DNA of 59,923 bases from an uncultured Syntrophaceae bacterium (GTDB taxonomy: Bacteria > Desulfobacterota > Syntrophia > Syntrophales > UBA4778). Below are positions 24,211-51,520 of this stretch, piece after piece; positions within the stretch are counted from its first letter, which is position 1; the number at the start of each line of letters is the position of its first letter. Location: the NCBI GenBank assembly GCA_964597995.1, contig CAZRAC010000003.1, positions 1 to 59,923 on the forward strand, in the 5' to 3' direction. Position numbers and translations under genes: made by a program. The notes below the pieces were generated by a model. That model was not told the DNA's origin. It saw only the letters and a program-made list of their open reading frames with translations, and did no database searches.

Positions 24211-24585
24211 TTAACCCAAAAAATAACGCATATAGGGGTTTGCGTAGAGGAGAACGAGCGAAACGACCAGGGCGTAAATGGTAATCGATTCCGCCATTGC
24301 CATACCCACGAGCATCGTTGTCAAGATCTTACCCTGGACGCCGGGGTTTCTTCCGACAGCCTGGCATGCGCCGCTTGCGGCATTTCCGATTCCTGCACCG
24401 GCGCCGATTGCACCGCCACCAATCGCTATACCTGCAGCTATCATCGCACCTACAGCGAAGATCACCTTCGTGTAAGGTTCACCCGTCGGAAGGGCTTCCG
24501 CCGCGAATACTACCGGTGAACACACAAACAGAGTTACCACGGCTGAGAAAAGGGTTAGTAAAGTCTTTCCGAATTTCTTTAACAT
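24211..24585 (-). CDS. atpE: F-type ATP synthase subunit c, paralog 1, with a signal-peptide-like N-terminal extension
   Basis: GAIGAGAGIG glycine motif, GRNPG loop, MAESITIY (ion-binding Glu), LYANP; AAGGAG RBS. Confidence 0.95.
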   Translation of the reverse strand: MLKKFGKTLLTLFSAVVTLFVCSPVVFAAEALPTGEPYTKVIFAVGAMIAAGIAIGGGAIGAGAGIGNAASGACQAVGRNPGVQGKILTTMLVGMAMAESITIYALVVSLVLLYANPYMRYFLG

Positions 24586-24695
24586 CTGTCCAATCTCCTT
24601 TCATGGGGTAAAGTAACCTGAATGACCAACCTTTTCCTTGTAACATAATTCTGTATCCAAAGAAAAGGAAAAGCTCTTCAGTTGCCCGCCCTATA

Positions 24696-24711
24696 TGCAA
24701 TGAATGTGCCT
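24696..24711 (-). promoter_or_regulatory. sigma54 (-24/-12) promoter driving atpE paralog 1
   Basis: Minus strand reads AGGCAC-ATTCA-TTGCA with exact GG-N10-GC spacing, ~110 nt upstream of the ATG. Confidence 0.75.
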
Positions 24712-24811
24712 CAATCTTCGGGGGTCGTCAGATGTGGCTAAGGTTGGACAAACATAGGGCTAATTATTACCGTCGGCGAAGTGTAGTGAGTGCGTTTATA
24801 CGGACTGCGTT

Positions 24812-24866
24812 TGACGTTTCGTTACACTGGAGAGGGAAATTTAACGAAATGTTAAATGAAACGTCA
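24812..24866. promoter_or_regulatory. Candidate upstream activator sequences (nested inverted repeats)
   Basis: TGACGTTTC(24812-20)/GAAACGTCA(24858-66), TTTCGTTA/TAACGAAA and ATTTAAC-N5-GTTAAAT, ~100-155 bp upstream of the sigma54 site. Confidence 0.55.
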
Positions 24867-24909
24867 TGAGGCGATGAAAGAACGTAGGCCCACGGAGGGA
24901 TGTTTTTTA

Positions 24910-24938
24910 TTGAAAAATGACAGTCGGGGCGATAGTAT
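24910..24938 (+). promoter_or_regulatory. Candidate sigma70 promoter for the small-protein / kinase operon
   Basis: TTGAAA-17 nt-TAGTAT. Confidence 0.5.
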
Positions 24939-25052
24939 CCTTTTGTACACGATCATTTAAAATGGCAGAAGTGTTAGTGCTGTGCAAAGCTATGGAGTAT
25001 GTTTTTTTCGTCCTGTCTTTCACCTTTAGCTCAAGTTGGAGTGGATCAGAAG

Positions 25053-25232
25053 ATGCAGGAAATATTGACCGCTGTAACATACCTTGTGGCCTGGTTAGCA
25101 TGCGAAAAAGTTTTTCACATCGAAAGCGGCCTCACCAAACTTCTCATCTCTCTTGGTGCCGCCGTTGGCGTCTATGTCCTGATAGCTGTGAAGGAAAGCC
25201 GCGAGAAGACACGGAAGGGACGAGACGATTGA
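25053..25232 (+). CDS. Small (59 aa) membrane protein with two hydrophobic segments
   Basis: GGAG RBS upstream; two hydrophobic stretches and a charged tail; stop 7 nt before the kinase start. Confidence 0.65.
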   Translation: MQEILTAVTYLVAWLACEKVFHIESGLTKLLISLGAAVGVYVLIAVKESREKTRKGRDD

Positions 25233-25239
25233 GCGGTGC

Positions 25240-27831
25240 ATGACTCCATCTATGGAAAATAAAAGAATAATTCCTATATGGTTGGCGACCGTCATCGTCA
25301 TCTTGATGGTAATCCTTTTTTCCATGCTCATAAATCGTGCGCGGGAAAAGGAAATCGTCGAGCGGTTCAGCCGTCAGCAAATGGCCATAGCCAAGGGGTT
25401 GGCCGCGGGGATCGAAGACCTTATCGCCGACGTGGGAAAAAGTATGATGATCCATTCCCTGCGGCTGACCAGCGGGCGGAAGGCGATCGTCTCCTTAAGA
25501 GAAGATGTCAGGGTAATCTTTGACAGCTTAGGTGCCAAGGTGAAGTTCGTCGCGGCAGACGGCGCAGACGGTAGCCCTATTGTCTATCCCTCTGACTACC
25601 GGCAGGCCTTTTTGACTAAGAGGCCTGAGATGCAGGCACTGATGAGAGAGGTGAAAAGGACTGGGAAGCCCCATGTCGGCGATTTTCTAAGAAAAGAAGG
25701 AAATGTCGGTGCTGAAAGAATCGGCGAGGACGAAACACTGGTAGTGGTCGCGGTTCCGCGGTTTGGTCAAGACAGGGAGGTTATCGGCGCCTTTTATGCC
25801 GCCCTATCTCTTTCCACCGTCGTCGACAGGTATATTTTGCCGGCGAAAGATGAATTTTCTTGCGAGGTCTGGCTGGTAGACGAAAAGGGGATGATCGCCT
25901 TCCATACCAACGGGCATCTGGCGGGTCGAGAGGCGGATGTACTTGAGACGGAGCAGCCGTCAGGAGGTCTCTCCCTGAAGAGTAGGATGATGGCCGGGGG
26001 CGAAGGCATAGGTGAGTATCGGTTGCTTCGGGGAAAAGGCCGCGAGGAAAGGCAGATCGTCGCCTTTTCGCCGGTCGGGCTCGACTCGAGAAAGTGGTCG
26101 GTGGCAGTCAGTCTCCCGTACCAGGCAGCGGTATCCCACTTGAAAAAAACGTTCGTCATCTTGATGCTGGAGGCCCTTGTTCTGATCGTTACAGCCGTCG
26201 TTGGGGCTGCGATGATTTTCTATACCAGCAGGCGGCGCCTTGTCTTGGAACAGGAGTTGAAGCGGTTCAAAGAACGGGATGATTTGCAGGAGAAGCTTGC
26301 CAGAGAGAAACGCACTATGGAGGGGATCATTGAGGGTTCTCCTATACCCACTTTTGTCATCGACCGGGACCACAAGGTCATTTTCTGGAACCGGGCCTGT
26401 GAGGAGTTGACGGGGTGCCGGAGCGTGGAAATGATAGGGACGGACAAGCAGTATATGCCCTTTTATCCCGAGAAGCGGCCGGTGATCGCCGATTTGATCG
26501 TAGATAATGACTTTGAGGGCCTGGATAAGTATTACGGGAAGAAGCAGGTTCAGAAGTCGTCGGTGGTGGAGAAGGCATACGAGGCGAGAGATTTTTATGA
26601 GAATCTGGGCGGTCGCAGGCGGCACCTTTATTTTCTCGCGGCGCCCATCTATGATGAGAACGGCCAGATAATCGCGGCGATCGAGACACTCCAGGATGTG
26701 ACCCGAGAGAGGGAGATGGAGTTAGCCCTGAAGGAATACGCCGAGACACTGAAGAACGAACTCTACGAGAACATTAAGCTAAAAAAGGACATAGAGGAGC
26801 TTTACAACTATCTTCAGTTCATCCTGGAAAGTTCCCCGGACCGGATATTCGACGTGACGAGCGATGGAACGATCAATTTCGTCAGCCGCAGCCTAGACTC
26901 CGGCACAGGAGCAAAGCAACTTCAAGGGAGGCATTTTACGGAGTTTGTGGCGCCCGAGCACAAAGAGTTCCTCATGAAAAGGTGGGAAGAGATCAAAGGA
27001 GGTCAATACCATCCTTTCGAGATAGAGGCGACAGCGAGAGACGGGACGAAACGAAACCTGTTGATCACCCCAAGGCCTATCAAGGGAACGGACCGTTATC
27101 TGTTCGTCCAGCGGGATATCACTGAATTCAAGGACCTGGAGAAGAAATTTTACGACAGCCAGAAACTCGCGGCGGTGGGACAACTCTCGGCAGGCATCGC
27201 CCACGAGGTGAGGAACCCGCTTTCGTCGATCAAAATGAGCCTTCAGATCCTGCAAAAGCGACTTCGCCCGGAAGGCAATGACCTAAAGAGGTTCAAGATT
27301 GCCGAGAAAGAAGTGGAGCATCTGGAAAAGATCGTCAGTGACATACTGCTCTTCGCTAAACCCATGGAACCGGACATGAGGCCGGGAGACGTCAACTCCT
27401 TCATCGACAGTTCTTTGTTGATGGCGGAGAAAGAGATATTGGAAAAGAAGATCGAGGTCCGCGCCGATTACGACAGCGATATCCCGCAGGCAAACTACGA
27501 CCCCGGGATGCTCAGGCAGGCGCTCCTGAACCTCTACCTAAACGCCATAGATGCGATGGATGAAGGAGGAGTACTAACCATCTCGACACGTTTTGTCAGG
27601 AAAGGTGATGGTGAATGGGTGCTGATAGAGATCGAGGACAACGGGTCCGGTATCGACGAAGAGGACATCCCCCACCTCTTTAACCCGTTTTTCACTCGGA
27701 AGAAGTATGGGACCGGGTTGGGATTGGCACAGGTAAAGAAAATCATCGACCTCCATCGGGGTACAATAGAAATCGTCAGCGTGAAGGGCCGGGGGACGAA
27801 GGTGTCTGTTGCGCTACCGGCAGGCGGGTAA
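25240..27831 (+). CDS. Sensor histidine kinase (TM-Cache-TM-PAS-PAS-HisKA-HATPase)
   Basis: H box AGIAHEVRNPLSSI, N box NLYLNAIDAM, G boxes EDNGSGI and GTGLGL; two PAS-like segments. Confidence 0.95.
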   Translation: MTPSMENKRIIPIWLATVIVILMVILFSMLINRAREKEIVERFSRQQMAIAKGLAAGIEDLIADVGKSMMIHSLRLTSGRKAIVSLREDVRVIFDSLGAKVKFVAADGADGSPIVYPSDYRQAFLTKRPEMQALMREVKRTGKPHVGDFLRKEGNVGAERIGEDETLVVVAVPRFGQDREVIGAFYAALSLSTVVDRYILPAKDEFSCEVWLVDEKGMIAFHTNGHLAGREADVLETEQPSGGLSLKSRMMAGGEGIGEYRLLRGKGREERQIVAFSPVGLDSRKWSVAVSLPYQAAVSHLKKTFVILMLEALVLIVTAVVGAAMIFYTSRRRLVLEQELKRFKERDDLQEKLAREKRTMEGIIEGSPIPTFVIDRDHKVIFWNRACEELTGCRSVEMIGTDKQYMPFYPEKRPVIADLIVDNDFEGLDKYYGKKQVQKSSVVEKAYEARDFYENLGGRRRHLYFLAAPIYDENGQIIAAIETLQDVTREREMELALKEYAETLKNELYENIKLKKDIEELYNYLQFILESSPDRIFDVTSDGTINFVSRSLDSGTGAKQLQGRHFTEFVAPEHKEFLMKRWEEIKGGQYHPFEIEATARDGTKRNLLITPRPIKGTDRYLFVQRDITEFKDLEKKFYDSQKLAAVGQLSAGIAHEVRNPLSSIKMSLQILQKRLRPEGNDLKRFKIAEKEVEHLEKIVSDILLFAKPMEPDMRPGDVNSFIDSSLLMAEKEILEKKIEVRADYDSDIPQANYDPGMLRQALLNLYLNAIDAMDEGGVLTISTRFVRKGDGEWVLIEIEDNGSGIDEEDIPHLFNPFFTRKKYGTGLGLAQVKKIIDLHRGTIEIVSVKGRGTKVSVALPAGG

Positions 27832-27977: not shown

Positions 27978-29348
27978 ATGGCCAAGATCATTGTGATTGA
28001 CGATGACAGGTCGATCAGTGAATCCCTCGAGTTGTATCTCTCGGAGGAGGGGCATGAGGTAATGACGGCCAATACAGGAACGGACGGCCTAAACTTGGTC
28101 CTCCAGACGTCGCCGGACATCGTCATCCTGGACATCCGACTGCCCGACATCGACGGGTTTACCGTCCTTGAAGACCTGAAAGAGGAGAACGTGGATGCCA
28201 AGGTGATAATGATAACCGCCCACCACGACATGGAGACCACGATCAAGGCCATGAAGGAAGGGGCCTTTGACTACATCCATAAACCCATAAACATAGATGA
28301 ATTGGACATCGCTATCCAGAAGGCCATCAATACGTTGGAGATGGAGAAGAAGATCAACGGCCTTCTCACGGAACCATCCCGGAGCTTCAAGGTCGGCGAC
28401 ATAATCGGCACCGGGAAGGCCATGCTGGATATCTTCAAAGTAATCGGCGTGGTCACCCAGAGCAAGACCACCGTCCTTATCCAGGGCGAGAGTGGAACCG
28501 GCAAGGAACTGATCGCCAAGGTGATCCACAACAATACTTCTCCCACCGAGCCTTATATCGCCATAAATTGCTCGGCCATCGTAGACACCTTGCTCGAGTC
28601 GGAACTCTTCGGGCATGAGAAGGGGTCTTTCACGGGGGCCATCAACCGGAAGCCGGGGAAGTTCGAACTTGCCCGCCATGGCACCGTCTTTCTGGATGAG
28701 ATCAGTGAGATGTCCCTGAACCTCCAGGCAAAACTCCTCAGGGTTCTCCAGGAGATGGAATTCGAGCGGGTGGGCGGGAAAGACCGCGTCAAGGTGAACG
28801 CAAGGATAATCGCCGCCACGAATAAGGACCTGAAGACCCTGGTCGAGGAAGGTAAGTTCAGGGACGACCTGTATTATCGCCTCAACATCGTCACGATCAA
28901 CATCCCTCCCCTCAGGGAGAGGAGGGAGGACATCCCCTTGCTCGTCGATTATCTGCTGAAGAAGATAAACCGGGATCTCCACAAGAACATCGTCGGCGTT
29001 TCGAAAGAAATGATGGACGTCTTCATGAAATACGGTTGGCCCGGTAACGTCCGTGAACTCGAGAATATCCTTGTACGTGCGGCCGTCGTCGCCAAAGGGC
29101 AGGTGCTCGGGCGCGAGGATTTCCCCGATTTGCTGGGTAGCGCGCAGGTACCGAAGGCACCGGCGGCGCTTGCCGGGGAAGAAGAGGAAGGGACCGGTTT
29201 TGAGACCCTTGACGAGATAGAGGAACGTCATATCCGCAGAGTCATCGCCAAGGTGGGCAGGAACAAAGGTGAAATCTGTGAGATCCTGGGTATATCACGC
29301 CCTACCCTCGAAAGAAAACTTGAGAAATACGGTATCCGTTTCGATTGA
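27978..29348 (+). CDS. NtrC-family sigma54-dependent response regulator (REC-AAA+-HTH)
   Basis: LDIRLPD receiver, QGESGTGKE Walker A, ESELFGHEKGSFTGA, FLDEISE, WPGNVRELEN, LGISRPTLERKL HTH. Confidence 0.96.
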   Translation: MAKIIVIDDDRSISESLELYLSEEGHEVMTANTGTDGLNLVLQTSPDIVILDIRLPDIDGFTVLEDLKEENVDAKVIMITAHHDMETTIKAMKEGAFDYIHKPINIDELDIAIQKAINTLEMEKKINGLLTEPSRSFKVGDIIGTGKAMLDIFKVIGVVTQSKTTVLIQGESGTGKELIAKVIHNNTSPTEPYIAINCSAIVDTLLESELFGHEKGSFTGAINRKPGKFELARHGTVFLDEISEMSLNLQAKLLRVLQEMEFERVGGKDRVKVNARIIAATNKDLKTLVEEGKFRDDLYYRLNIVTINIPPLRERREDIPLLVDYLLKKINRDLHKNIVGVSKEMMDVFMKYGWPGNVRELENILVRAAVVAKGQVLGREDFPDLLGSAQVPKAPAALAGEEEEGTGFETLDEIEERHIRRVIAKVGRNKGEICEILGISRPTLERKLEKYGIRFD

Positions 29349-30109: not shown

Positions 30110-30949
30110 TCAATATTCCGGTGTCAGTCTGTCCAGCTCGGCAAGCGAGAATACAGGCCCGTCTTTGCATACATACTTACTACCCACATTGCAGCGCCCA
30201 CACTTGCCTATACCGCATTTCATCCGCATTTCCAAAGAGGTATAGATGTTTTCCTTGGAAAACCCGAGTTCGAAGAACACGGGCAAGGTAAAGCGGATCA
30301 TGATGGGAGGACCGCAGATCACAGTCACCGCGTCTTCTGCACTCGGGGCGACTTCTTTGCAAACGGTAGGGACAAAGCCTTCCCGCCCTTTCCAGGTCTC
30401 GTCCCCCTTGTCCACCGTGACGTGGAGCTCCATATCGTCTCGCTTCGACCAGGCCTCGAGCTCATCCTTGTAAAGGAGGAGTCCGGGCGTCCTCGCCCCG
30501 TAGATCGTCGTGATCTTGCCGAAGCGTTTGCGGTTGCTGTCGTTTAACATGTACTGGATGAGGGCGCGCAACGTAGTGAAGGCAAATCCACCGCCTACTA
30601 CCACGATGTTCTTGCCCTCCAAGTATTCGATGGGCCACGAATTTCCTAAGGGTCCGCGGACACCCATCATGGTCCCTTCTTCCATCTCATGCAGTGCCGT
30701 AGTTACTACGCCCGCCTTTTGCACGGTAAATTCTATGTAGCCGGGGTTGGTCGGTGACGAGGCGATGCCGATGGGCGACTCACCCTTTCCGAAGATGGAG
30801 AGCTCGGCGAATTGGCCGGGCAGATACTTGAAACTTTCCTCGTCTTCCTTGTTTACGAAAGCCAGTCGAAAGGTCTTGATATCTTTTGTATCCACCTCAG
30901 TCACGATCTTTATGACTTCGACCGGATAGGGTACATATGGATTCTGCAT
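30110..30949 (-). CDS. flxA: FlxA: FAD/NAD-binding oxidoreductase with a 2Fe-2S cluster
   Basis: PGQFAEL, RGPLGN, VGGGFA, CGPPIM, MKCGIGKCGRC..C.DGPVF; last gene of the hdr/flx operon. Confidence 0.85.
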   Translation of the reverse strand: MQNPYVPYPVEVIKIVTEVDTKDIKTFRLAFVNKEDEESFKYLPGQFAELSIFGKGESPIGIASSPTNPGYIEFTVQKAGVVTTALHEMEEGTMMGVRGPLGNSWPIEYLEGKNIVVVGGGFAFTTLRALIQYMLNDSNRKRFGKITTIYGARTPGLLLYKDELEAWSKRDDMELHVTVDKGDETWKGREGFVPTVCKEVAPSAEDAVTVICGPPIMIRFTLPVFFELGFSKENIYTSLEMRMKCGIGKCGRCNVGSKYVCKDGPVFSLAELDRLTPEY

Positions 30950-30962
30950 AACGTTCTCCCGA

Positions 30963-31988
30963 CTACTGTAATTTCGAAATATCTTCGACGATCTTCCGAA
31001 TATCGATATTGACAGGACAGTACATCACGCATCTGCCGCATCCCACACAGGCAATGGCATTAAAATTGTCCACGTAGTATTTGAATTTATGCATAACCCG
31101 CTGGCGCCAGCGCTCCTTTTGCGTCGGCCGGGGGTTGTGGCCGGACGTTTCTTTAGTGAATAGGGGAAACATGCAGGAGTCCCAGTTCCGAAGACGACGC
31201 CCGTCATCGTATTTCATCTCATCGTTTATGTCGAAGCAATGGCAGGTGGGACAAAGGTACGTACAGGTACCGCAGGCTAGACACCGTTTATGGATTGTGT
31301 CCCAGAAGGGGTGGTCAAAACTCACGTCAAGGATGGGCTTGATTTCCTGGGCGGGGATGTTGGATTTTATCTGCCCGACCGCCTCCTTGGCAGCCGTCTC
31401 CTTCTTGTTGTCCGCCTCGGCCGTTGCCTTTGCCTCCCCAAAGTACTTGGCCAGCCTTTCCCCCTTGGGCGTCAGAAACTCCACGAGGTATACGTCCCCG
31501 ATGTCGGTAACGAGGACATCGCTTCCCGTACTGTCTACAGGGCCGCCGCCCACAGAGGTACAAAAACACGTGGTGTAAGGAACGGGTGTGCAGGCAAGAG
31601 TTACCACGGTCGCTTTCTCGCGTTTGGCGATGTAATATGGGTCTTTGTATTTCTCCTGGTCGAATAAAAGGTCGAGGAGGACGAAACTCCTTGCGTCGCA
31701 AGGCCTGACACCGAAGAGCACCGCATCCCTTGCCTCTAACTCCACCCCTTTCAGTACCGTTCCCTTAGGAGTACGGACGTACCGGATCATTACTTCCGTC
31801 CTGGGGAAGAACACCCCCTTGGGAGCGTTCTTAGTGTTGGCAAAGGTTAGTAACGGTTCTTCTCCCGGTGCGAGCGGCTTGAACAGGACATTGTCTTCTA
31901 ATTTCACCGGGGCAAAGACGTTGAACTCTCCTCCGACCTTCTTTACGATCCCTAACAGCTCATCTTTTTTGATCAACCGTTTTTCCAT
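30963..31988 (-). CDS. flxB: FlxB: 4Fe-4S dicluster protein (AsrA-like)
   Basis: GVRPCDA, CLACGTCTYLCPTCHC, RNWDSC, CVGCGRCVMYCP; start ATG 31988. Confidence 0.85.
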   Translation of the reverse strand: MEKRLIKKDELLGIVKKVGGEFNVFAPVKLEDNVLFKPLAPGEEPLLTFANTKNAPKGVFFPRTEVMIRYVRTPKGTVLKGVELEARDAVLFGVRPCDARSFVLLDLLFDQEKYKDPYYIAKREKATVVTLACTPVPYTTCFCTSVGGGPVDSTGSDVLVTDIGDVYLVEFLTPKGERLAKYFGEAKATAEADNKKETAAKEAVGQIKSNIPAQEIKPILDVSFDHPFWDTIHKRCLACGTCTYLCPTCHCFDINDEMKYDDGRRLRNWDSCMFPLFTKETSGHNPRPTQKERWRQRVMHKFKYYVDNFNAIACVGCGRCVMYCPVNIDIRKIVEDISKLQ

Positions 31989-32014
31989 GGTATCCTTCAG
32001 TCTTCCAAGTTTTT

Positions 32015-32869
32015 TTACATCAGCCCCAAACCACTCATGAGCGGTGTGGGATCGACCATGTGGAGTTTGAACCAATCCGCCGGTCCTGGTATTCCCATCG
32101 CCAGGGCCATGAGCTCGGTGAAGTAAAATACCGGCAGCTTGACGTTATCACCGGCCCTCGTATCAAGATTCGCCATACAGACCGGACAGGCCGTCACGAC
32201 ACAGTTGGCGTCCGCCTCCCGAGCCATCGTCATCAGCCGGTCAACCAAGTTCCGTACGACGTCTGTCCGGCTGATCGTCAGGCTGCCGCCGCAACAATCC
32301 GTCTTGAAGGACCACTGTTTCACTTCTGCCCCCAGGGTCCCTAAGATTTCATCCAACATATAAGGATTCTCGTAGTTTTCGAACTGGCATACCTCGGGCG
32401 GCCTGACCAACAGGCAACCATAGTACGATACCGGTTTTAGACCGGTCAGCCTTCTCACGACCTTTTGAGCAATCGCCTCCATGCCGACATCGTCATGGAA
32501 AAGACCGATGGGATGCTTTACCGTTACCGTTCCTTGATATGGTCGGCCGATGATGCCGTCTATCGCCGCTTTCAATCTATCATCATGAGCAAGATGGTGC
32601 TGGGCGCTCTTGAATCTGTTGAAACAGGCGGCGCAGGGTACCATCACCTCCTTGTCCCCTGCCGACTCGATCAATACGAGGTTTCGTGCGGGCAACGCCA
32701 CGGATAGCTTGAAATTGGTAGAGTGGGCCGAAGTGGCACCGCAGCACGACCAGTCTTCTACCTCCGCGAGGTCTATCCCCAGTGCAGAAGACACCGCCTT
32801 CACAGACTGATCGTACTCCTTCGCTGTTCCATGCAGAGAGCATCCCGGATAGTATGAAACTTTCAACAC
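32015..32869 (-). CDS. hdrB: Heterodisulfide reductase subunit B (CCG domains)
   Basis: YYPGC, WSCCGA, PCAAC, YYGC, DCCGG, ACPVC; GTG/TTG start after AGGAGG. Confidence 0.93.
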   Translation of the reverse strand: MLKVSYYPGCSLHGTAKEYDQSVKAVSSALGIDLAEVEDWSCCGATSAHSTNFKLSVALPARNLVLIESAGDKEVMVPCAACFNRFKSAQHHLAHDDRLKAAIDGIIGRPYQGTVTVKHPIGLFHDDVGMEAIAQKVVRRLTGLKPVSYYGCLLVRPPEVCQFENYENPYMLDEILGTLGAEVKQWSFKTDCCGGSLTISRTDVVRNLVDRLMTMAREADANCVVTACPVCMANLDTRAGDNVKLPVFYFTELMALAMGIPGPADWFKLHMVDPTPLMSGLGLM

Positions 32870-32885
32870 TTGCCTCCTTATGAGA

Positions 32886-33410
32886 TCACTGTCTGGTCTT
32901 CTCGAAAATCTCCTTTACCGCCCTCAAGTTCTTGGTCTTGGGAGAGATCAGGGGGAGTTTTCCTTTGAGAAGCATTTCGACGCCCATCGACATATCGGAA
33001 AATAGGTCTCCCGACCGTAGCTTGTAATTAACCATCATGAGAGGTTCGTTTATCCGGCCACGGAGTTTGATGCCCCGCAGAAAGGCCTCATGGAAGAGTA
33101 CCACGTTCTTTTCTTTCGCGGGGACACCCTCCTTTAAGGCCATTTCCCTCAGAACATCCATCATCCTCGCGATATCCACCTCGTTGGGGCATCGGGTGAT
33201 GCACGTCTCGCAGGATGCGCATAACCAGATGGTCGAACTGTTCAGCACTTCCTTCTTCATCCCCATCTGGATCATCTTTATGACCCGATTGGGGTTGTAC
33301 TCCATGACCGATGCCAGAGGGCATCCGGCCGTGCACTTCCGACAATGGTAGCATCGCTGGATAGGTACACCGCTAATCTTTTCGTTCACTTCTTCGAGAA
33401 AGGTCTTCAT
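32886..33410 (-). CDS. hdrC: Heterodisulfide reductase subunit C
   Basis: CYHCRKCTAGCP and CASCETCITRCP. Confidence 0.92.
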   Translation of the reverse strand: MKTFLEEVNEKISGVPIQRCYHCRKCTAGCPLASVMEYNPNRVIKMIQMGMKKEVLNSSTIWLCASCETCITRCPNEVDIARMMDVLREMALKEGVPAKEKNVVLFHEAFLRGIKLRGRINEPLMMVNYKLRSGDLFSDMSMGVEMLLKGKLPLISPKTKNLRAVKEIFEKTRQ

Positions 33411-33428
33411 TATGCACTCCGTTTCACC

Positions 33429-34475
33429 TTACGGGTTGTAGATAAAGTCCTCGCATTCGTGCTCCCGGAAGGTTGCGAGCACGGGGGGGTCATCCAACGA
33501 GGCGCCGGCCCGACTCCCGAAGAGCTCATAGGCGTCCTTGTCCAATTTTTTCAGGAAGGTCCTCAGATCGACCCCCATGGGACAGACGGCGACACAGGAA
33601 CCGCAGTCCACGCACCGCCCCGCCATGTGGAAAATCCTCATGATTTGGAATACCTGCGTATCGGGGGCATTTTCTCCTATGCCTACCCATTGAGGTCTGC
33701 TTTGTTCGGCAAAGCATTCCGGGCAATAACAGGAGGGGCACGCTTGACGGCAGGCATAACACCGGATGCACTTTGCCATCTCTTTCTCGAAATAGGCCCA
33801 CCTCTCCTCGGAAGGCCGGGATTCGAAGGCCTTAACGGCGTCGTATTCTTCGTCCGCCCTCATGGCCGGCGCCGGCTCACCTACCGTCAGGTCGTTGATT
33901 ACGGGGTTGTTAAACCGGCAGGTGAGGCAATTATCGGCCAGGACGTCCGCTACTGCCACGATTCTATCACCGGCGGCTGTAGTCACCTTCAGTTGCTCGC
34001 CGTCCAAGGCCCCGTCAACGATTTCCTGTCCTTCGAGGAGGACGGAAAGCTTCTTCTTATCCACATACCCCCGACAGGGCACGCCCAGGACCACGATCTC
34101 CTCGCGAGTGTACTGCCGTTCCTGCAGATGGAGGATGATAGAACGAGTCGTACAGCCGCGCGCTACGACACCCACCACCTTCTTTGTCCTATTTTCCGGC
34201 TTCACCCGTTTCTGTGCGTTCCGATGCTGGAAGATGACGTCATGCACGTATTTTGCGAGGTTCTGTACGCATAAGGCGTTCCAGAGGAGCTTCGCCGTGT
34301 CTGAAGGATCAGTGACAAACGTGGGCACGGCCGTGAGCGGCAACGTCCCCGCCTCGTAACCCACGATGACATCGACCTTTTTTTCCTCTAACAGTTTCTT
34401 CGCCTCTTCCCGCAGCTTTTTCTCGATGGCTTCCACTTTTCTCGAATCCTCGTTTTGTTGATCTCTACCCGTCAC
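33429..34475 (-). CDS. flxC: FlxC: 4Fe-4S dicluster protein
   Basis: CIRCYACRQACPSCYC and CVDCGSCVAVCP; GTGA overlap with mvhD. Confidence 0.82.
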   Translation of the reverse strand: MTGRDQQNEDSRKVEAIEKKLREEAKKLLEEKKVDVIVGYEAGTLPLTAVPTFVTDPSDTAKLLWNALCVQNLAKYVHDVIFQHRNAQKRVKPENRTKKVVGVVARGCTTRSIILHLQERQYTREEIVVLGVPCRGYVDKKKLSVLLEGQEIVDGALDGEQLKVTTAAGDRIVAVADVLADNCLTCRFNNPVINDLTVGEPAPAMRADEEYDAVKAFESRPSEERWAYFEKEMAKCIRCYACRQACPSCYCPECFAEQSRPQWVGIGENAPDTQVFQIMRIFHMAGRCVDCGSCVAVCPMGVDLRTFLKKLDKDAYELFGSRAGASLDDPPVLATFREHECEDFIYNP

Positions 34476-34909
34476 AGTGATTTAACCAGCTTCTTTGCCG
34501 GCCCCAGTTGCCTGACCCTTTCCGTTACCCCACTAACTACCTTGGCGAATCGCTCACCTTCGGAAGCCGAACACCAGGTAAAGGTCGTCCGATCCGCCTC
34601 CAAACCGAGGTAATCGAGGAATCTCTTCAGCATGGCAAACTTTCGCCGGGCGCTGAGATTTCCGGTTATGTAGTGGCATTCACCGGGGTGGCAACCGGAC
34701 ACAAGAACTCCATCCGCTCCTTCCTGTAGGGCGCGCACGATGTAAAAAGGATTGATCCGTCCCGTGCAGGGGACACGGATGATGCGGACATTGGGGGGAT
34801 ACTGGATACGACTTATGCCGGCGAGGTCGGCACCGGCGTAAGTGCACCAGTTACACACGATGGCAGCTATCTTCGGATCCCAACCCTCTTTCACTCGGTC
34901 TTCTGACAT
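34472..34909 (-). CDS. mvhD: MvhD/FlxD 2Fe-2S subunit
   Basis: CNWCTYAGAD, RVPCTGR, SGCHPGECHY, WCSASEG; all Cys, no Sec. Confidence 0.93.
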   Translation of the reverse strand: MSEDRVKEGWDPKIAAIVCNWCTYAGADLAGISRIQYPPNVRIIRVPCTGRINPFYIVRALQEGADGVLVSGCHPGECHYITGNLSARRKFAMLKRFLDYLGLEADRTTFTWCSASEGERFAKVVSGVTERVRQLGPAKKLVKSL

Positions 34910-34978
34910 CTCGTTCTCCGTTTCTGAACCATAGTCTATTCCGCCCTTTCTCCTTGTGAGGGCGCGTCATTTGTCACG

Positions 34979-40717: not shown

Positions 40718-42131
40718 AGAACAGGTTGAAAGAAAAGAAAAAAAGGAGAAGGTCCCCAGGCAGTCCATGCCCGAGCAGGACCCGAAAGAACGCATAAAGA
40801 ACTTCGAAGAAGTTCCTTACGGTTACACTACGGAGCAGGCCCTCCTTGAGGCAAGTCGGTGCATCCAATGCAAGAAACCGGGGTGCATCGCCGGGTGCCC
40901 GGTGGATGTCGATATTCCCGGTTTCATAAAACTGATCGCGGAGGGGAAATTCGTCGAGGCTGCATGGAAGTTGAAAGAAACAAACGCCCTTCCGGCAGTC
41001 TGCGGGAGGGTCTGTCCTCAGGAAGATCAGTGCGAAAAGGTATGCATCCTGGGCAAGAAGGGCGACCCGGTGGCAATCGGGAGGCTGGAGCGGTTCGCGG
41101 CGGATTACGAACGTGCGACGGGGAGCGTCCAGGTACCCAAGGTCGCAGCGGCTACGGGTAAGAGGGTAGCCGTCGTTGGTGCGGGGCCGGCTGGGCTGAC
41201 GATCGCCGGTGACCTTGTGAAAGTCGGCCACGACGTTACGGTGTTCGAGGCTCTTCACAAGCCGGGAGGGGTGTTGGTCTATGGGATTCCTGAGTTTCGT
41301 CTGCCCAAGGCCATCGTCGATGCCGAGGTGAGTTACCTCGAAAATCTCGGAGTGAAGATAGTCACGGATGCAGTGATAGGTAGGCTGAAGACCGTCGACG
41401 ACCTGTTTGCCGAAGGGTTTCAAGCGGTTTTTCTTGGTGTCGGCGCCGGTGCCCCCGTGTTTATGAACATACCGGGGGAGAACCTCTCCGGCATCTACTC
41501 CGCGAACGAATATCTTACTAGGTCCAACCTGATGAAGGCCTACCGTTTTCCCGAGTTCGACACACCGATCGTGAGAGGCAGAAATGTGGCCGTCATCGGG
41601 GGAGGGAACGTGGCCATGGATTCGGTGCGGACGGCCCTGCGTCTCGGGGCGGAAAACGCCTACATCATCTACCGGCGCTCGAAGGTGGAGATGCCCGCCA
41701 GGATAGAGGAGGTTCACCATGCCGAGGAGGAAGGCGTGCAGTTTAATTTTCTTACCAACCCCGTCGAGTACATCGGCGACGAAGACGGCTGGGTGAAAAA
41801 AATGGTCTGCAACCGGATGGAACTCGGCGAGCCCGATGGATCGGGCAGGCGCAGGCCCATCGTGATTCCGGGTTCGGAATTCACGATCGATGTAGACACC
41901 GTCGTCGTCGCAATCGGCACCACGGCCAACCCGGTGATCCCCAGGACTACGCCGGGGCTTGAAGTAAATAAATGGGGCTATATTGTGACGAAGGACGGCA
42001 CGGGAGAAACGACCCGCAAGGGCGTATACGCGGGCGGAGACATTGTCACCGGCTCCGCTACCGTCATCCTCGCCATGGGCGCCGGTCGTCAGGCGGCGAA
42101 GGCCGTCGACGAATACATAAGGACATTGTGA
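40707..42131 (+). CDS. nfnB: NfnB (GltD-like) subunit
   Basis: RCIQCKKPGC..GCP, VCGRVCPQEDQCE, GAGPAGL, GGGNVAMD..YRRS, AGGDIVTG; overlaps nfnA. Confidence 0.9.
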   Translation: MENREQVERKEKKEKVPRQSMPEQDPKERIKNFEEVPYGYTTEQALLEASRCIQCKKPGCIAGCPVDVDIPGFIKLIAEGKFVEAAWKLKETNALPAVCGRVCPQEDQCEKVCILGKKGDPVAIGRLERFAADYERATGSVQVPKVAAATGKRVAVVGAGPAGLTIAGDLVKVGHDVTVFEALHKPGGVLVYGIPEFRLPKAIVDAEVSYLENLGVKIVTDAVIGRLKTVDDLFAEGFQAVFLGVGAGAPVFMNIPGENLSGIYSANEYLTRSNLMKAYRFPEFDTPIVRGRNVAVIGGGNVAMDSVRTALRLGAENAYIIYRRSKVEMPARIEEVHHAEEEGVQFNFLTNPVEYIGDEDGWVKKMVCNRMELGEPDGSGRRRPIVIPGSEFTIDVDTVVVAIGTTANPVIPRTTPGLEVNKWGYIVTKDGTGETTRKGVYAGGDIVTGSATVILAMGAGRQAAKAVDEYIRTL

Positions 42132-43765: not shown

Positions 43766-43934
43766 GTAGATACTCCCTCCATTGAAATTTTGGTTAAGGC
43801 TTCGTCAGATTTATTTACCGCAGAAAAATTTTCAGTTGATTGCCTTGATCCCCCCTTTCTAAGTGACATTATCTTGAGGTCCTCGCTCATCCCGTTGTCA
43901 AGTCTGTTCCGACCGGAGGAAGGGACCTTTCAGT

Positions 43935-44083
43935 TCCCCGTGGTGCCACACTGGGCATACACACCTGACGCGCTACTCCGCTGAAAATCAGTGGTGTAAC
44001 GCCATGAATTCAAGATGTTGTGGGTATGCCCGGCTCGAGTACCGAGCCGGGATTAGTCAAGGCCCAGCACGACAGCTTGGGGA
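43935..44083. ncRNA. Candidate structured RNA element of unknown family
   Basis: Nested pairings TCCCC/GGGGA, GTGCC/AGCAC, CTGGGCATAC/GTATGCCCGG, GCGCTAC/GTAACGC, plus a perfect 9-bp hairpin at 44029-44051. Confidence 0.4.
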
Positions 44084-44163
44084 TTTTGACCCCGTGATGA
44101 CTCTAAAGACGGCAGAGGTACTGTCATTCGGCCAGACCGGTGCTTCTCTCAAGCCCGTCTCCA

Positions 44164-44817
44164 CTAATGAGCCCCCTCCATCGCGCCGGCGATGTACATC
44201 ATCGAGAGGAGAGCGAAGACCAATGTCTGGATGATTGCGATGAAGACCTTCAGGGCCAGGATCGGCAACGGCACCAGGAAAGGAACCAGGATGAAGAGCA
44301 CGGCGAGGACTATGTGCCCGCCCTGGATGTTTCCGAATAGTCGCACCGAAAGCGATAGCGGCCTGGTAAGGTGGCTTATGATTTCGATAGGCAGCATCAA
44401 CGGGGTGAGCCACCAGACCGGCCCCAGGAACTGCTTGATGTATTTGAAGCCGTGGATTTTGATGCCCACGATGTGGGTCATGAAGAACACGCAAAGGGCC
44501 ATGGACACCGTCGTGTTGAGGTTCGATGTGGGCGACTCAAACCCTGGTATGAGACCGATGAGGTTCGATGTCAAGATGAAGATGGCGAGCGTTGCGATCA
44601 AGGGGAAATAAGCCTTTCCATGGGGACCCATAGTCTCGATTAGCAGGTTTTCTATGGCGCCCACGACAACTTCCATGATGTTCTGTATTTTGTTGGGGTA
44701 AATGTCCATCCGGCGGGTTGCGGCGACAGAAAGGAGAGCCAATAATATCATAGTCAACCACGTGTACGTCACGTGGGCCGGAAAGGGGATCCACTCAAGG
44801 TACAGGAAAGAATGCAT
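44164..44817 (-). CDS. atpB: F-type ATP synthase subunit a
   Basis: [35 protein letters not shown] (essential Arg), [13 protein letters not shown]. Confidence 0.95.
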
Positions 44818-44822
44818 CTTTG

Positions 44823-45224
44823 TTACTTAACCTCCCTGGTTTTTAGTATGTTATACTTCGACGCTTCGACGACAGCCGACACGATGATGTTCATGACGAC
44901 GACTGACAGGCCTACGAGAAGGCCGATCACATCGGCCGGTGTACCGGTGATGACAAAATACAGTACAACCCCCGTCACAGCGAAGCGGATGTAATATCGG
45001 ACCATGAGGGCTGTCTTGGCCTTGTTAGTCAGGTTTTGGAAGACCTTTCTTAAGCTTAAATAGAGCCAGTAAAAGTTTATGATGCTGATCAACCCGCCCA
45101 ACAGGACCCCGAGAGTGAAATTCAAGGGCATAAAAACGAGACTCAGCGTAAGCAACACCCCAAGTCCTATCCAGTTCCTCACTTCAAGCTTTTTTTGGAG
45201 AGGGTCTTTTACGGTGGGGTTCAC
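44823..45224 (-). CDS. atpI: ATP synthase protein I
   Basis: Four TM segments, [15 protein letters not shown]; directly upstream of atpB. Confidence 0.85.
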
Positions 45225-45471
45225 TCTTTATCCGCCTTTGAATCTCCTCCCCCTCATTGGGGAAGTTGCGCTTGACCATGGTATAGACATTCCTGAGCCC
45301 CGCGATGATCCCGACGAGGAAAAACAAGAGGGTCAGCTTATGTCCCGTGCCCAGCTTCCGGTCCAGCCAAGAACCGAGCAGAAGACCTCCGAAGACTGCA
45401 AGAACCATCGCAAAACCCACGCTACTGGCGTAGGTCAGCTGGATCATGAAGTTCTTTGTGTCTTTGTCCAT
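45184..45471 (-). CDS. atpZ: AtpZ/AtpI-family small membrane protein
   Basis: VGFAMVLAVFGGLLLGSWLDRKLGT..LFFLVGIIAGLRN signature. Confidence 0.85.
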   Translation of the reverse strand: MDKDTKNFMIQLTYASSVGFAMVLAVFGGLLLGSWLDRKLGTGHKLTLLFFLVGIIAGLRNVYTMVKRNFPNEGEEIQRRIKSEPHRKRPSPKKA

Positions 45472-45507
45472 GAGCGGGCGCCTTGTAACATACGTGACCG
45501 ATAAAGT

Positions 45508-45537
45508 CAACGATAAAACGGACAACGGGTTATGGGG
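45508..45537. repeat. Degenerate 7-bp-periodic intergenic repeat
   Basis: CAACGAT AAAACGG ACAACGG GTTATGG; shares CAACGGGTT and TTATGGGG with 27842-27899. Confidence 0.45.
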
Positions 45538-45604
45538 GTATAAGGCCAAAAACGCGGAGCCGGAAGCTACAGCAGACCCGTAAGACGGCTTAAAACGTGG
45601 ACGA

Positions 45605-48970: not shown

Positions 48971-49029
48971 GGGGTGTCCCTTCGTTATGACTATGTTTGG
49001 TTCCCTTCATAACAATGCAACGACGATGC

Positions 49030-50334
49030 TCAACGCCGAGAATGCGGCGACGCCAAGATATTTTCGACCGCCTTGCCGCAGGCCTCGACCGTCCTTTCCA
49101 AGTCGTGGTCTGTATGAGCGATGGAGACGAAAGAGGCTTCGAACTGAGACGGCGCCAGGCTCACGCCCCGGCGAAGCATCTCCCGGAAGTAAGCGGCGTA
49201 GAGTCGTGTATCGCTTTTTAGGGCTGACGCGAAGTCATGAACCTCGCCGTCCGTGAAAAAGAAGGTAAACATGGATCCTTCTCTGTTCAAGTGTGTCGGC
49301 AGTCCTTTTTTCTCGAAGATTTTCCCCATCTCCTCGCACAGGTTGGAAGTGAAACGGTCGAGCATTTCGTAATGATTTCCGTCCCGGAGGACCTCGATGG
49401 TGGCGATCCCCGCGGCCATCGCGAGGGGGTTTCCGGAGAGTGTTCCTGCCTGGTACACGGGCCCGAGGGGGGCGAGCGCCTCCATGACATCCCTCCGTCC
49501 GCCGAAGGCCCCCACGGGAAGTCCACCCCCGATGATCTTGCCGAGGCAGGTCAGGTCTGGTTCGATGCCCTTGAGGGTCTGGTAACCGCCGTAAGCAAGC
49601 CGGAAACCAGTGATGACTTCATCGAAGATGAGGAGGATTCCCTTTTTCTTGGTGATAGCCCGCAAACCGTCGAGAAAAGGAGGACGGGGCGGGACGACGC
49701 CCATGTTCCCCGCCACGGGCTCCACAATCACGCAGGCGATGTCATCTCCGTAGAGGTCGACAGCGGCTTCGAAAGTGGCTAAGTCATTGAAGGGCAGGGA
49801 AACGGTCAATTCCGCGAGCCTATCCGGTACCCCCGGGCTCCCCGGGATGCCGAGCGTCGCCACGCCGGAGCCGGCCTTGACGAGGAGCGAATCGGCGTGG
49901 CCGTGGTAGCAACCGTCGAATTTAACGACTTTTTCCTTCCCGGTAAACCCCCTGGCGAGGCGGACGGCGCTCATGGCGGCTTCTGTCCCCGAGCTCACCA
50001 TCCGCACCATGTCGATGGACGGGAAGGCGTCGACGATCATCCGGGCCATCACGGTCTCCGCCTCCGTCGGTGCGCCGTAGCTCGTGCCTCTTTCGGCGGC
50101 TTTTATCACGGCTTCCAGGACATGGGGGTATGCGTGACCGAGGATCATCGGCCCCCAGGAGGAGACGTAATCGATGTATTCCCTCCCTTCGGTGTCGTAA
50201 ACCTTCGACCCCGCAGCGCGGGCCACAAAAAAAGGCGTCGAGTCCACCGCCCGGAACGCCCTCACAGGGCTGTTCACGCCTCCGGGGATGTATTTCTTCG
50301 CCTCCTCGAATAAGAGCTCGTTCTTTTTTCCCAT
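49030..50334 (-). CDS. hemL: Glutamate-1-semialdehyde 2,1-aminomutase
   Basis: [49 protein letters not shown]. Confidence 0.96.
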
Positions 50335-50348
50335 CTATTCGCCCTGAC

Positions 50349-50405
50349 CGTGAGCGTGAATCACGAAGTACAAGGAGTGGTCTTCACCCTTCACAGTTTA
50401 TCACC
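50349..50405. repeat. Degenerate short-period intergenic repeats between ahbB and hemL
   Basis: CGTGAG CGTGAA TCACG and TCACCCT TCACAGT TTATCAC. Confidence 0.4.
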
Positions 50406-50414
50406 CATCGTATT

Positions 50415-50882
50415 CTAAAAGTACTCCATGCTGCTCTTCTTGAACTCCTCTATGCTTTCGAGGACCTTAAAGTCGTCGATGCCCGTCGCCCTGGACAAGC
50501 CTTTCACTACTTGCAGGAGGTCTTCGCCCTCCCGAGCGTGGACCATGGTGAAGATGTTGTACCTTCCCTCGAAGGCCGGTGTCCTCTCGTAGCAGTGGGT
50601 TACTTGTCTTGACACAGAAAAGGCCTTTCCCTTTTCTTCGACATCCTCCGCCTTTACCGACCACAGGACCATCGCGTTTTTCGTATAGCCGGCCTTCTGG
50701 TGCCTCAGGATCGCGCTGAACTTTCGGATCCTCCCGTCATCACGCATCTTTTTGACGGCGGCGATGACCTCTTCCTCGATAGTCCCGATTTTTTCGGCGA
50801 TCATCTGGAACGGTCTTTTCTCTACGGGGATTTCTCCCTGGAGTGCTTTTCCAGTTTTTTTGACCTTTTCTTCTTCCATCAT
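50415..50882 (-). CDS. ahbB: Siroheme decarboxylase beta-like subunit (Lrp/AsnC-like, AhbB/NirH family)
   Basis: LQGEIPV..RPF..IA..IG, G.IRKFSAIL.H.KAGY..NAM..W, VTHCYER, YNIFTMVHA; upstream of hemL. Confidence 0.85.
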   Translation of the reverse strand: MMEEEKVKKTGKALQGEIPVEKRPFQMIAEKIGTIEEEVIAAVKKMRDDGRIRKFSAILRHQKAGYTKNAMVLWSVKAEDVEEKGKAFSVSRQVTHCYERTPAFEGRYNIFTMVHAREGEDLLQVVKGLSRATGIDDFKVLESIEEFKKSSMEYF

Positions 50883-50998
50883 CCGCAATCTCGGTCCGGG
50901 AGGTTTGTTTCTGCCGTTTTTTTCTCTTCCCTAGCAACTCATTTCCTGTTTCAGAGGCAGAAAAAGCCGAAGGGGACAATAACATAACCAAATAATTC

Positions 50999-51027
50999 TT
51001 GACAATTTTTTTTGCTGAAGCTAAAAG
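50999..51027 (+). promoter_or_regulatory. Candidate sigma70 promoter of atpE paralog 2
   Basis: TTGACA-17 nt-TAAAAG (no T at -7). Confidence 0.5.
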
Positions 51028-51142
51028 CTCCCCTTGAGTAGGAGAAAGAGTGTAGAAGGGGGGTGAAGGAGAGCGGGATAAAAAGCAGGAATAAAAAGCG
51101 GCAATGGCATTTCAGTCGAACTTAAACGAAAGGATGGTAAAA

Positions 51143-51520
51143 ATGAGGAAAGTAAGGATACTTGCAGCTTCTCTTTTGAGTCTCTTCGGAGTGCTCGTGT
51201 TTGCGACTTTTGCGATGGCAGCACAGGGAGCGGCGGCCACCGAGGGAAGCATCAACTACACCAAGGCAATCGTCGTGGGATGCTCTCTCATCGCCGCCGG
51301 ACTCTCGATTGGGTTGGGTGCTAACGGAACCGGCCACGGCATGGGGCAGGCGACAAGCGGCAGTGCAAGCGCCGTGGGAAGAAACCCGGAGGCACAGGGA
51401 AAGATCCTGCTGACCATGATGGTCGGTCTCGCGATGGCGGAATCGGTCGCGATTTACGCGCTCGTCGTTTCTCTCATCATTCTTTACGCCAACCCGTTGT
51501 TGAAGGTAATCGCCGGTTAA
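51143..51520 (+). CDS. atpE: F-type ATP synthase subunit c, paralog 2, with a signal-peptide-like N-terminal extension
   Basis: GANGTGHGMG motif, GRNPEA loop, MAESVAIY, LYANP; AAAGGA 8 nt before ATG 51143. Confidence 0.95.
   Translation: MRKVRILAASLLSLFGVLVFATFAMAAQGAAATEGSINYTKAIVVGCSLIAAGLSIGLGANGTGHGMGQATSGSASAVGRNPEAQGKILLTMMVGLAMAESVAIYALVVSLIILYANPLLKVIAG

Follow-up and report, generated by a model that had tools for sequence, protein, structure and literature searches.

In the F1Fo ATP synthase of Acetobacterium woodii, one F-type enzyme already has more than one gene for its rotor subunit c. In that organism, the c genes lie inside the atp operon, and the product called c1 is short of one carboxylate. 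It is a duplicated four-helix protein of 182 amino acids (aa) (PDB 4bem), and the enzyme to which it belongs is Na+-coupled. In this work, a stretch of 59,923 nucleotides (nt) from an uncultured Syntrophaceae bacterium (contig CAZRAC010000003.1 of assembly GCA_964597995.1, hereafter the window) was analysed, which carries two paralogous genes for subunit c, here also named c1 and c2. PDB 4bem is the top PDB match to the c1 of the window, but here both proteins are single hairpins with Glu65, both are predicted to be proton-type, and their genes are unlinked and under different promoters. On balance it is probable that they are two proton-type, expressed c isoforms of a single F1Fo ATP synthase, which are wired to different regulators.

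In mammals, the mature c proteins are identical and the isoforms differ in the presequence only. According to PMC3542316, mammals (ATP5G1-3) and Trypanosoma brucei likewise have several separately regulated c precursors, from which the N-terminal targeting extensions are removed. Unlike the mammalian isoforms, c1 and c2 of the window are 61% identical over the aligned mature region and carry ion-site residues specific to each family. The c subunit of Aquifex aeolicus, an organism with dispersed atp genes and a single c gene, is reportedly made with an N-terminal cleavable signal peptide (Zhang et al., FEBS J 2013), as is predicted for c1 and c2 of the window; a paralog pair, sigma-54 control or a Cache partner is not known from A. 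aeolicus.

In H+-binding c rings with sites of the ExxTxY type, a Gln in helix 1 hydrogen-bonds the Glu. Two such rings, the c15 ring of Spirulina platensis (PDB 2wie) and the chloroplast c14 ring, are among the closest matches to the proteins of the window (E about 1e-16); they have the same helix-1 pattern, G-x-I-G-x-G-x-G-x-G, and the ESITIY of c1 resembles their EALTIY. These rings keep the helix-1 Gln, whereas c1 and c2 have Ile and Met there, respectively. As for regulation, the region upstream of c1 shares with NtrC-type sigma-54 control the -24 GG/-12 GC element, tandem palindromic sites, and an adjacent kinase together with a regulator carrying a Sigma54_activat domain. To our knowledge, no NtrC/sigma-54 control of an ATP-synthase rotor subunit has been published, and a limited literature search found no case of sigma-54 two-component control of one. 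Paralogous c genes are known elsewhere, and what distinguishes the present pair is the separate wiring, sigma-70 for one gene and sensor kinase with sigma-54 for the other, together with a conserved partner that carries a putative Cache domain.

Two orphan genes for subunit c

The coordinates of all features are collected in Table 1. The translation of c1 contains GGGAIGAGAGIGNAASGACQAVGRNPG followed further on by MAMAESITIY, and that of the c2 open reading frame (ORF), which has 138 aa, contains GLGANGTGHGMGQATSGSASAVGRNPE and LAMAESVAIY. Both are genuine F-type c subunits: PF00137 (ATP-synt_C) of Pfam recognises c1 with 63.7 bits and c2 with 59.6 bits (cut-off 24), and TIGR01260 with 49.9 and 44.2 bits, respectively, both over the threshold of 43.95. 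Each forms a two-helix hairpin, with the carboxylate E65 in helix 2, a polar loop of the R-[NQ]-P type (RNP) and a Gly-rich helix 1. In order to place the residues, c1, c2 and the c subunit of Ilyobacter tartaricus were aligned with MAFFT, and all residue numbers follow I. tartaricus; phmmer matched the reference sequence used to residues 1–89 of PDB 1yce, a match that was read as span and E-value (8.6e-50). The E65, the RNP loop and G27/G29/G31/G33 of c1 and c2 align with the c subunits of I. tartaricus and Spirulina; E65, the loop and the helix-1 glycines are conserved to about 100% (at least 97%) in the family profiles, which were made from 130 c1-type and 130 c2-type sequences. The start of c2 is probably the ATG at 51,143, giving 125 aa, because a Shine-Dalgarno-like AAAGGATGG stands upstream and the homologues are 120–129 aa long.

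Both proteins start with a basic n-region, which is followed by a hydrophobic h-region and then by a small-x-small motif (VFA|AE in c1, AMA|AQ in c2). In all relatives inspected, the cleavage-type motif is conserved, as SP[VLI][VA][FY][AS]|AE on the c1 side and AP[FL][AV][MFL]A|A on the c2 side. Judging from these motifs, c1 and c2 would be precursors with a cleavable Sec-type signal peptide, and the mature proteins would be single hairpins of 96–99 residues with Glu65. The N-terminus of subunit c is periplasmic, and a Sec signal peptide is consistent with such a topology. A lipoprotein reading of c1, suggested by LFVC, was rejected since the Cys is not conserved among relatives.

Neither gene belongs to an atp operon. 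The window contains an atpZ-atpI-atpB cluster. A c gene usually, though not obligatorily, stands beside atpB in the atp operon, and no c-like ORF is present at 43,766–44,163, the 400 nt to the next gene; atpZ-atpI-atpB without atpE is also found in all syntenic relatives examined, for example the loci L002, L006 and L007. No F1 genes are present within the window. About 20 kb separate c1 from atpB and about 6 kb separate c2 from it, and each of the two genes belongs to another transcription unit. The cluster has thus lost atpE, and c1 and c2 are orphan genes. The earlier note had presented the pair as one span, 24,211–51,520, which is merely the outer bound of two unlinked genes with about 26.5 kb of unrelated genes between them, and both ORFs translate as it had quoted them. 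c2 stands alone, with a siroheme-decarboxylase-like gene on one side and an arfB-like gene on the other, and 52 nt downstream of c1 begins the gene of a membrane protein, here called dCacheTM, which is followed by phosphoenolpyruvate (PEP) synthase. In the published annotation of Candidatus Smithella cisternae, there is a single F1 and a single atpB, along with two b subunits, and the genes labelled 'subunit C' number exactly two; one of these is eight genes away from atpB, like c2 here (PMC5606693, Table S9), a point that the paper does not discuss. By this analogy, the source organism of the window would likewise have one enzyme served by two c genes, without a third.

A Na+ site of the I. 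tartaricus type comprises Gln or Glu at position 32, Glu65, Ser or Thr at 66, a polar residue (S/T/Q/R) at 67, and Tyr70. Glu65, Ser66 and Tyr70 are retained in c1 and c2 and are invariant in both families; in place of Gln32, c1 has Ile and c2 has Met, and in place of Thr67, c1 has Ile and c2 has Val. When c1 is aligned by phmmer with the c15 ring of Spirulina (2wie), its Ile likewise falls on the Gln position. The ion-site residues are constant inside each family: position 32 is I in 100% of the c1-type and M or L in 97% of the c2-type sequences, Gln32 occurs in 0 of 130 and 1 of 130, respectively, and none of the sequences of either type has Ser or Thr at 67, the residue there being I, V, L or C. 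According to PMC2359735, c subunits short of one or more Na+ ligands are predicted to be H+-only, and a polar S/T/Q/R at 67 holds a water ligand. Since both c1 and c2 are without Gln/Glu32 and without a polar residue at 67, it follows under this criterion that both are most likely proton-coupled, and each would have a one-carboxylate site in which Glu65 is supported by Ser66 and Tyr70. A caveat to the proton reading is that c2-type proteins have polar residues near the site (T28, Q/N/H34, often T64), with Ser66 kept too. The sole c2-type member with Gln32 is P0043 (125 aa; GTGIGQGMG), which reads ESIAIY with nothing polar at 67 and may reflect a transitional state of the ion site or else its reversion. 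The label 'sodium ion specific' has been given to one c2-type protein; automated annotation is not to be relied on for such proteins.

As the earlier note had given them from its own alignment, the residues at 32, 65, 66, 67 and 70 and the Asn26, Thr28 and His30 of c2 are all borne out by the MAFFT alignment, and its expectation that both proteins are probably H+-type is supported by the two Na+ ligands missing throughout both families. The note had also held that the helix-1 GxGxGxG motif influences ring stoichiometry, in agreement with PMC7594442, that this motif differs between the paralogs, and that different ring sizes might result. In fact, G24, A25, G27, G29, G31 and G33 are the same in c1 and c2, and the x positions alone differ; because the Gly/Ala positions are identical, the sequences give no specific ground for predicting different ring sizes. 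Nor does its suggestion that the His of c2 adds pH sensitivity hold up well: His30 is present in 4 and Asn26 in 8 of the 130 c2-type sequences, position 30 being otherwise L, N, V, I or Q, so that a functional role for the two residues was rejected as lineage-specific and a conserved pH-sensing role of His30 is unlikely. A64 of c2 in the window is atypical as well (8 of 130), and it is unlikely that His30, Asn26 or A64 marks a functional distinction of c2.

The residues that do separate the families are I32 in c1 against M/L32 in c2, A64 against I/T64, A36 against L/T, and the loop residues 48–49, GV against EA, with further differences at positions 55 and 58 and in the N-terminal part of helix 1. 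Cys40, near the cytoplasmic-loop end of helix 1, is present in 130 of 130 c1-type proteins (precursor residue 74 of c1, about 24,364–24,366). The c2-type family has a Cys of its own near the N-terminal end of helix 1, in 89% of the proteins (precursor residue 47 of c2, about 51,281–51,283). In c-ring structures, positions 32 and 64 flank the carboxylate and the loop faces F1. As judged from the family profiles, c1 and c2 differ consistently beside the ion site and in the F1-facing loop.

In order to follow the pair across genomes, GTDB species genomes were scanned with a degenerate DNA pattern for the loop that both types have in common, and loci (labelled L###) were retrieved in fixed 8-kb blocks, which supports statements on presence and synteny; all synteny and promoter counts below are among the pattern-scan loci listed. 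The scan gave at least 51 c1-type and at least 48 c2-type loci; about 29 further matches were set aside as ordinary short c genes (Lachnospiraceae, Saccharimonadia and others). Both types occur in one assembly in at least eight cases (PLLC01, CAWJQM01, CAXXWJ01, JAKPCH01, OY820932, CAWETF01, CAWASK01 and CAITLA01), and both share the 447-kb contig Ga0573185_08874 of the Joint Genome Institute; the closest genome among the matches listed is that of Syntrophaceae bacterium UBA5761. Hundreds of proteins of each type are found in databases: the c1-type ones are mostly of 124 aa and 73–100% identical among the 120 listed, and the c2-type ones are more variable (57–99%). All named matches belong to Syntrophales, Smithella or 'Deltaproteobacteria', and a neighbor-joining tree of the mature region, from a short alignment and without bootstrap, sets a tight c1 clade apart from a looser c2 clade. 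The genes c1 and c2 are an old paralog pair conserved across the order Syntrophales. c2 loci are flanked on one side by ahbAB, hemL, sugar-nucleotide genes and atpZIB, and on the opposite side by arfB. In a Syntrophaceae metagenome-assembled genome (MAG) (L116, 620–3,030), c2 stands directly beside the c1-dCacheTM operon and convergent with it, both being within 2.5 kb.

Promoters, regulators and transcripts

The c2 gene is monocistronic and forms a transcription unit by itself, between a sigma-70-type promoter and a terminator. The promoter is conserved in the loci L002 and L006, and a sigma-70-type element scoring at least 10/12 was found in 28 of 43 c2-type against 6 of 48 c1-type loci. The terminator-like hairpin had been missed by the scan program, which considers loops of 3–8 nt only. 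RNA contigs of c2 cover 51,137–51,571 only, with their ends at 51,541–51,571, that is, at the terminator.

c1 is preceded by a sigma-54-type element, and the same relative position carries an element with a score of at least 9/11 in 44 of 48 c1-type against 3 of 43 c2-type loci. Further upstream, about 110–140 nt from the -24 element, are two palindromes, both of which are kept in 16 of 16 aligned c1 upstream regions (TTNAAC-N5-GTTNAA type), and the strict palindrome pattern has no other match in the 60-kb window. A -24/-12 element with upstream palindromes is the classic enhancer layout of an NtrC-type activator, and the palindromes are accordingly put forward as a candidate enhancer, or upstream activating sequence (UAS), for the activator of this type encoded nearby. 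Divergent from c1 are the genes of a small hydrophobic protein, a sensor histidine kinase and an NtrC-type response regulator. For the small protein, no Pfam family was found; its orthologue is called as a gene in the loci L001 and L004. The regulator is 72–86% identical in syntenic loci, and kinase and regulator usually stand divergent upstream of c1. In the genus Syntrophus (loci L030, L033, L062, L080 and L115, including the complete genome of S. buswellii DM-2), c1 leads straight into PEP synthase, and there is no adjacent kinase or regulator where the retrieved block covers enough of the upstream side (e.g., L030); the sigma-54-like element is still present in a weaker form, and the palindrome is present in 3 of these 5 loci. 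Elsewhere in the window, a second sigma-54-like element, TGGCAT-N5-ATGCG, stands at 39,608–39,623 (plus strand), about 260 nt upstream of the ORFs 39,881–40,717 and 40,707–42,131, the latter of which looks by its sequence like a GltD/NfnB-type pyridine-nucleotide oxidoreductase.

Sequences matching the window are found in metagenomes from oil fields, anaerobic digesters, activated sludge and wastewater, and in metatranscriptomes from the latter three. One RNA contig of 850 nt contains the start of dCacheTM, the spacer and the whole of c1, so that c1 and dCacheTM are co-transcribed; it ends at 24,672, past which there is adapter sequence, and four metatranscriptome runs gave no RNA upstream of that position. 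This end lies about 25 nt beyond the -12 element and fits co-transcription from the sigma-54-type promoter. It is also located at the base of a hairpin in the c1 leader, which is noted here as a side observation. All 10 orthologous leaders examined fold alike, with z-scores of -2.3 to -3.9 in 8 of the 10; the stem sequences vary between lineages, and RNAalifold on the MAFFT alignment of the leaders gave no consensus structure.

In the one comparable run (X27), the word depth of the c1 contig was 32.8 against about 4 for atpB, that is, about 8-fold, contig depth being a poor measure of expression. At a threshold of 80% likeness, contigs with a c1-type tail had depths of 118–568 and those with a c2-type tail 26–65 in the same runs; at this likeness, cross-mapping in the conserved half occurs among c transcripts from many members of the community, and the figures show that both types are expressed somewhere in the community. 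Both paralog types are thus transcribed in digesters.

The dCacheTM partner and other features of the window

dCacheTM is predicted to consist of an N-terminal transmembrane helix (TM1), a putative, divergent double-Cache domain in the periplasm, a C-terminal transmembrane helix (TM2) and an acidic tail. The match to dCache_1 is 39.9 bits (E = 4.6e-10), under the Pfam gathering cut-off of 45. About 30 acidic residues follow TM2, and no output domain (kinase, methyl-accepting chemotaxis protein, cyclase or similar) was found in the protein. Its gene lies 42–56 nt downstream of c1 in 36 of the 42 c1 loci with room for it, and the c1 loci without it are mainly of the genus Syntrophus. Homologues are 70–100% identical and are named just 'cache domain-containing' or hypothetical; TM1 (RVFFLLIVIP) is the most conserved region even in homologues of 40% identity. 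A profile search of PDB sequences gave nothing meaningful, and an AlphaFold2 model from 27 homologues was poor (mean predicted local distance difference test 52). The idea that dCacheTM is a recent copy of the kinase sensor was rejected, as BLASTP found no real similarity to the sensor domain of the kinase.

In four loci, one of them labelled Desulfomonilia, a c2-like c gene is followed after about 200 nt by a dCacheTM homologue of 37–42% identity, and no comparable sigma-54 element was found upstream of these loci. In the locus L051 (1,116–4,780, minus strand; MAG UBA6087, labelled Syntrophaceae, with a c gene that clusters with the Desulfomonilia type), an Rnf/Nqr membrane subunit and an RnfB-like Fe-S protein follow the c gene and the dCacheTM homologue on the same strand. 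dCacheTM may serve the kinase as a co-sensor, or else its target may be the c ring. Because the pairing persists in these four loci without the sigma-54/kinase context, the evidence leans slightly to a link with the c subunit itself. dCacheTM is thus an uncharacterised protein family, whose only consistent genomic partner is a c-subunit gene.

Table 1. Coordinates of the features discussed, in positions of the window.
Feature	Coordinates	Strand	Description and basis
c1, F-type ATP synthase subunit c paralog	24211–24585	minus	124-aa precursor; translation, PF00137, alignment, homologues, family profile
c2, second subunit c paralog	51143–51520	plus	125 aa from probable start; ORF opens at 51104
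Predicted Sec-type signal peptide of c1	24502–24585	minus	28 aa, MLKKFGK...SPVVFA|AEALP; by inspection
Predicted Sec-type signal peptide of c2	51143–51220	plus	26 aa, MRKVRIL...TFAMA|AQGA; by inspection
Sigma-70-type promoter of c2	50999–51027	plus	TTGACA, 17 nt, TAAAAG; read from the sequence
Terminator-like hairpin after c2	51541–51583	plus	11-bp stem GGGAGAGGAAG/CTTCTTCTCCC, 13-nt loop, then T8; read from the sequence
Sigma-54-type -24/-12 element	24696–24711	minus	AGGCAC-N5-TTGCA; upstream of c1, fixed position in relatives
Tandem palindromes, candidate enhancer (UAS)	24810–24856	minus	TTTAAC-N5-GTTAAA at 24840–24856; TGTAAC-N5-GTCAAA at 24810–24826
Hairpin at the 5′ end of c1 mRNA	24630–24668	minus	pyrimidine-rich arm pairs with purine-rich arm; apical UUUxUGYUA motif
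dCacheTM	22839–24158	minus	439 aa, membrane protein; predicted TM1, putative dCache-like domain in the periplasm, TM2 and an acidic tail; downstream of c1
Small hydrophobic protein	25053–25232	plus	conserved, 59 aa, probably two-helix; MQEILTAVTYLVAWLACEKVFHIESGL...; 8 nt upstream of the kinase gene; read by hand in the window
Sensor histidine kinase	25240–27831	plus	dCache_1, PAS, PAS, HisKA, HATPase_c (Pfam); divergent from c1
NtrC-type response regulator/sigma-54 activator	27978–29348	plus	Response_reg, Sigma54_activat, HTH_8 (Pfam)
atpZ-atpI-atpB cluster	44164–45549	minus	atpZ 45184–45549, atpI 44823–45224, atpB 44164–44817; Pfam ATPase_gene1, ATP-synt_I, ATP-synt_A

The remaining features recorded in the window are a class A RNA of ribonuclease P (18,010–18,459, plus strand, 321.8 bits), which makes the ORFs over 17,734–18,467 artefacts of this RNA gene, a tRNA-Met gene (16,633–16,706, plus strand), and a large cluster at 30,110–39,403 (minus strand). 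The translations of this cluster contain Cys-rich Fe-S and flavin-binding motifs and include a 1474-aa HdrA-like fusion protein, and from these motifs it looks like an Hdr/Mvh-type electron-transfer module of the kind described in Smithella relatives.

Explanations for the pair

The reading that we hold with moderate confidence, namely two proton-type isoforms of one enzyme under different regulators, places the main difference between c1 and c2 in their regulatory wiring. The promoter architecture of the two genes differs as described, and the dependence of c1 on RpoN, on the regulator and on its signal would go with it. c2 is transcribed alone, from a sigma-70-type promoter and up to a terminator, and would be constitutive; c1 is transcribed together with dCacheTM from a sigma-54-type promoter with two palindromes, which would be governed by the divergent operon of the small membrane protein, the Cache-PAS kinase and the NtrC-type activator, so that a signal from outside or from the periplasm would determine how much c1 enters the rotor ring.

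Several points weigh against this reading. The sigma-54 promoter and the UAS of c1 are predictions, and the RNA 5′ end at 24,672 lies about 13 nt past the expected sigma-54 start. The genus Syntrophus keeps c1 without dCacheTM and without the adjacent kinase and regulator, so that the regulatory module is not universal. The RNA, which is supporting evidence and no more, consists of assembled metatranscriptome contigs of related strains (90–99% identical), possibly with DNA among it, and its depth gauges expression poorly; as far as it goes, c1-type transcripts are abundant, and c1, instead of being conditional, may simply be the chief housekeeping c subunit. That the source organism has a third, divergent c gene is made improbable solely by the Smithella analogy, and the genome listing is a lower bound, from which the absence of a paralog in any genome is not deducible.

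Among the rival explanations, the one that survives best is that c1 and c2 are functionally equivalent and that the duplication serves dosage and regulation, with c1 providing most of the ring, c2 topping it up, and the differences being neutral or co-adapted. It fits the same glycine positions, the same E65, S66 and Y70, and the 61% identity; subunit c also needs high expression, to which the depth of c1 relative to atpB in run X27 would correspond, and both mammals and T. brucei have retained multiple c genes, whose differences lie mainly outside the mature protein (PMC3542316). However, the clades are distinct throughout the order, and because the family-specific residues beside the ion site and in the F1-contact loop (I32 against M/L32, A64 against I/T64, C40 and the loop itself) are invariant, neutral drift of redundant copies is unlikely. 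This explanation has a modest chance of being right.

It is improbable that c1 and c2 together form one heteromeric ring of fixed composition, like the hybrid rotor of A. woodii. The precedent is the A. woodii ring of c1 and c2/3 (PDB 4bem), the helix-packing glycines of the two proteins are the same, and both paralog types are represented by transcripts from the same digester samples, but those transcripts are not assignable to single cells or strains, unlinked genes under different sigma factors are hard to square with a fixed stoichiometry, and both proteins are single hairpins with the carboxylate, unlike the c1 of A. woodii.

The use of two ion currencies, in which one isoform would be Na+-coupled and the other H+-coupled, is very improbable: Ser66 and Tyr70 in both proteins, the polar T28, Q/N/H34 and often T64 of the c2-type, the 'sodium ion specific' label on one c2-type protein and the Na+-linked enzymes of Syntrophus relatives (PMC8805022) might be taken that way, but practically every member of both families lacks Gln/Glu32 as well as a polar residue at 67, which under the criterion of PMC2359735 means protons, and Met or Ile at 32 is unable to ligate Na+. 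Equally hard to credit is a complex of c1 and dCacheTM apart from the ATP synthase (for instance a proteolipid ring or channel whose gating depends on a ligand in the periplasm), with c2 alone building the rotor, since, for all that the c-dCacheTM pair is tight and conserved, also in the Desulfomonilia-type loci without a comparable sigma-54 element, that TM1 is the most conserved part of dCacheTM and that c2 rather than c1 lies near atpZIB, the F1-contact loop (GRNPGVQGK) and the carboxylate of c1 are essentially invariant, c1-type transcripts are at least as abundant as c2-type ones, and in the genus Syntrophus c1 occurs with no dCacheTM beside it.

Two proton-type isoforms of one enzyme, separately regulated, can also be taken one step further, to a signal-controlled 'gear shifting' that we rate as quite unlikely. 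In such a case, the kinase and the sigma-54 activator would sense a cue, on a speculative view syntrophic energy stress, and induce c1 and dCacheTM; c1 would replace c2 and alter ring stoichiometry or proton affinity, and hence the H+/ATP ratio, and the strongly conserved transmembrane helices of dCacheTM would attach to the c1 ring or enter it, in the way that Ac45/Voa1, accessory subunits of V-ATPases, are housed within the c rings there. If gear shifting were true, dCacheTM would be a novel Fo accessory subunit, or assembly factor, in an F-type enzyme. A limited literature search found no description of the Syntrophales c-paralog pair. Syntrophic bacteria grow near the thermodynamic limit, on fractions of an ATP, and an isoform pair of subunit c that extends through the order offers a concrete, testable handle on the question of rotor tuning by syntrophs.

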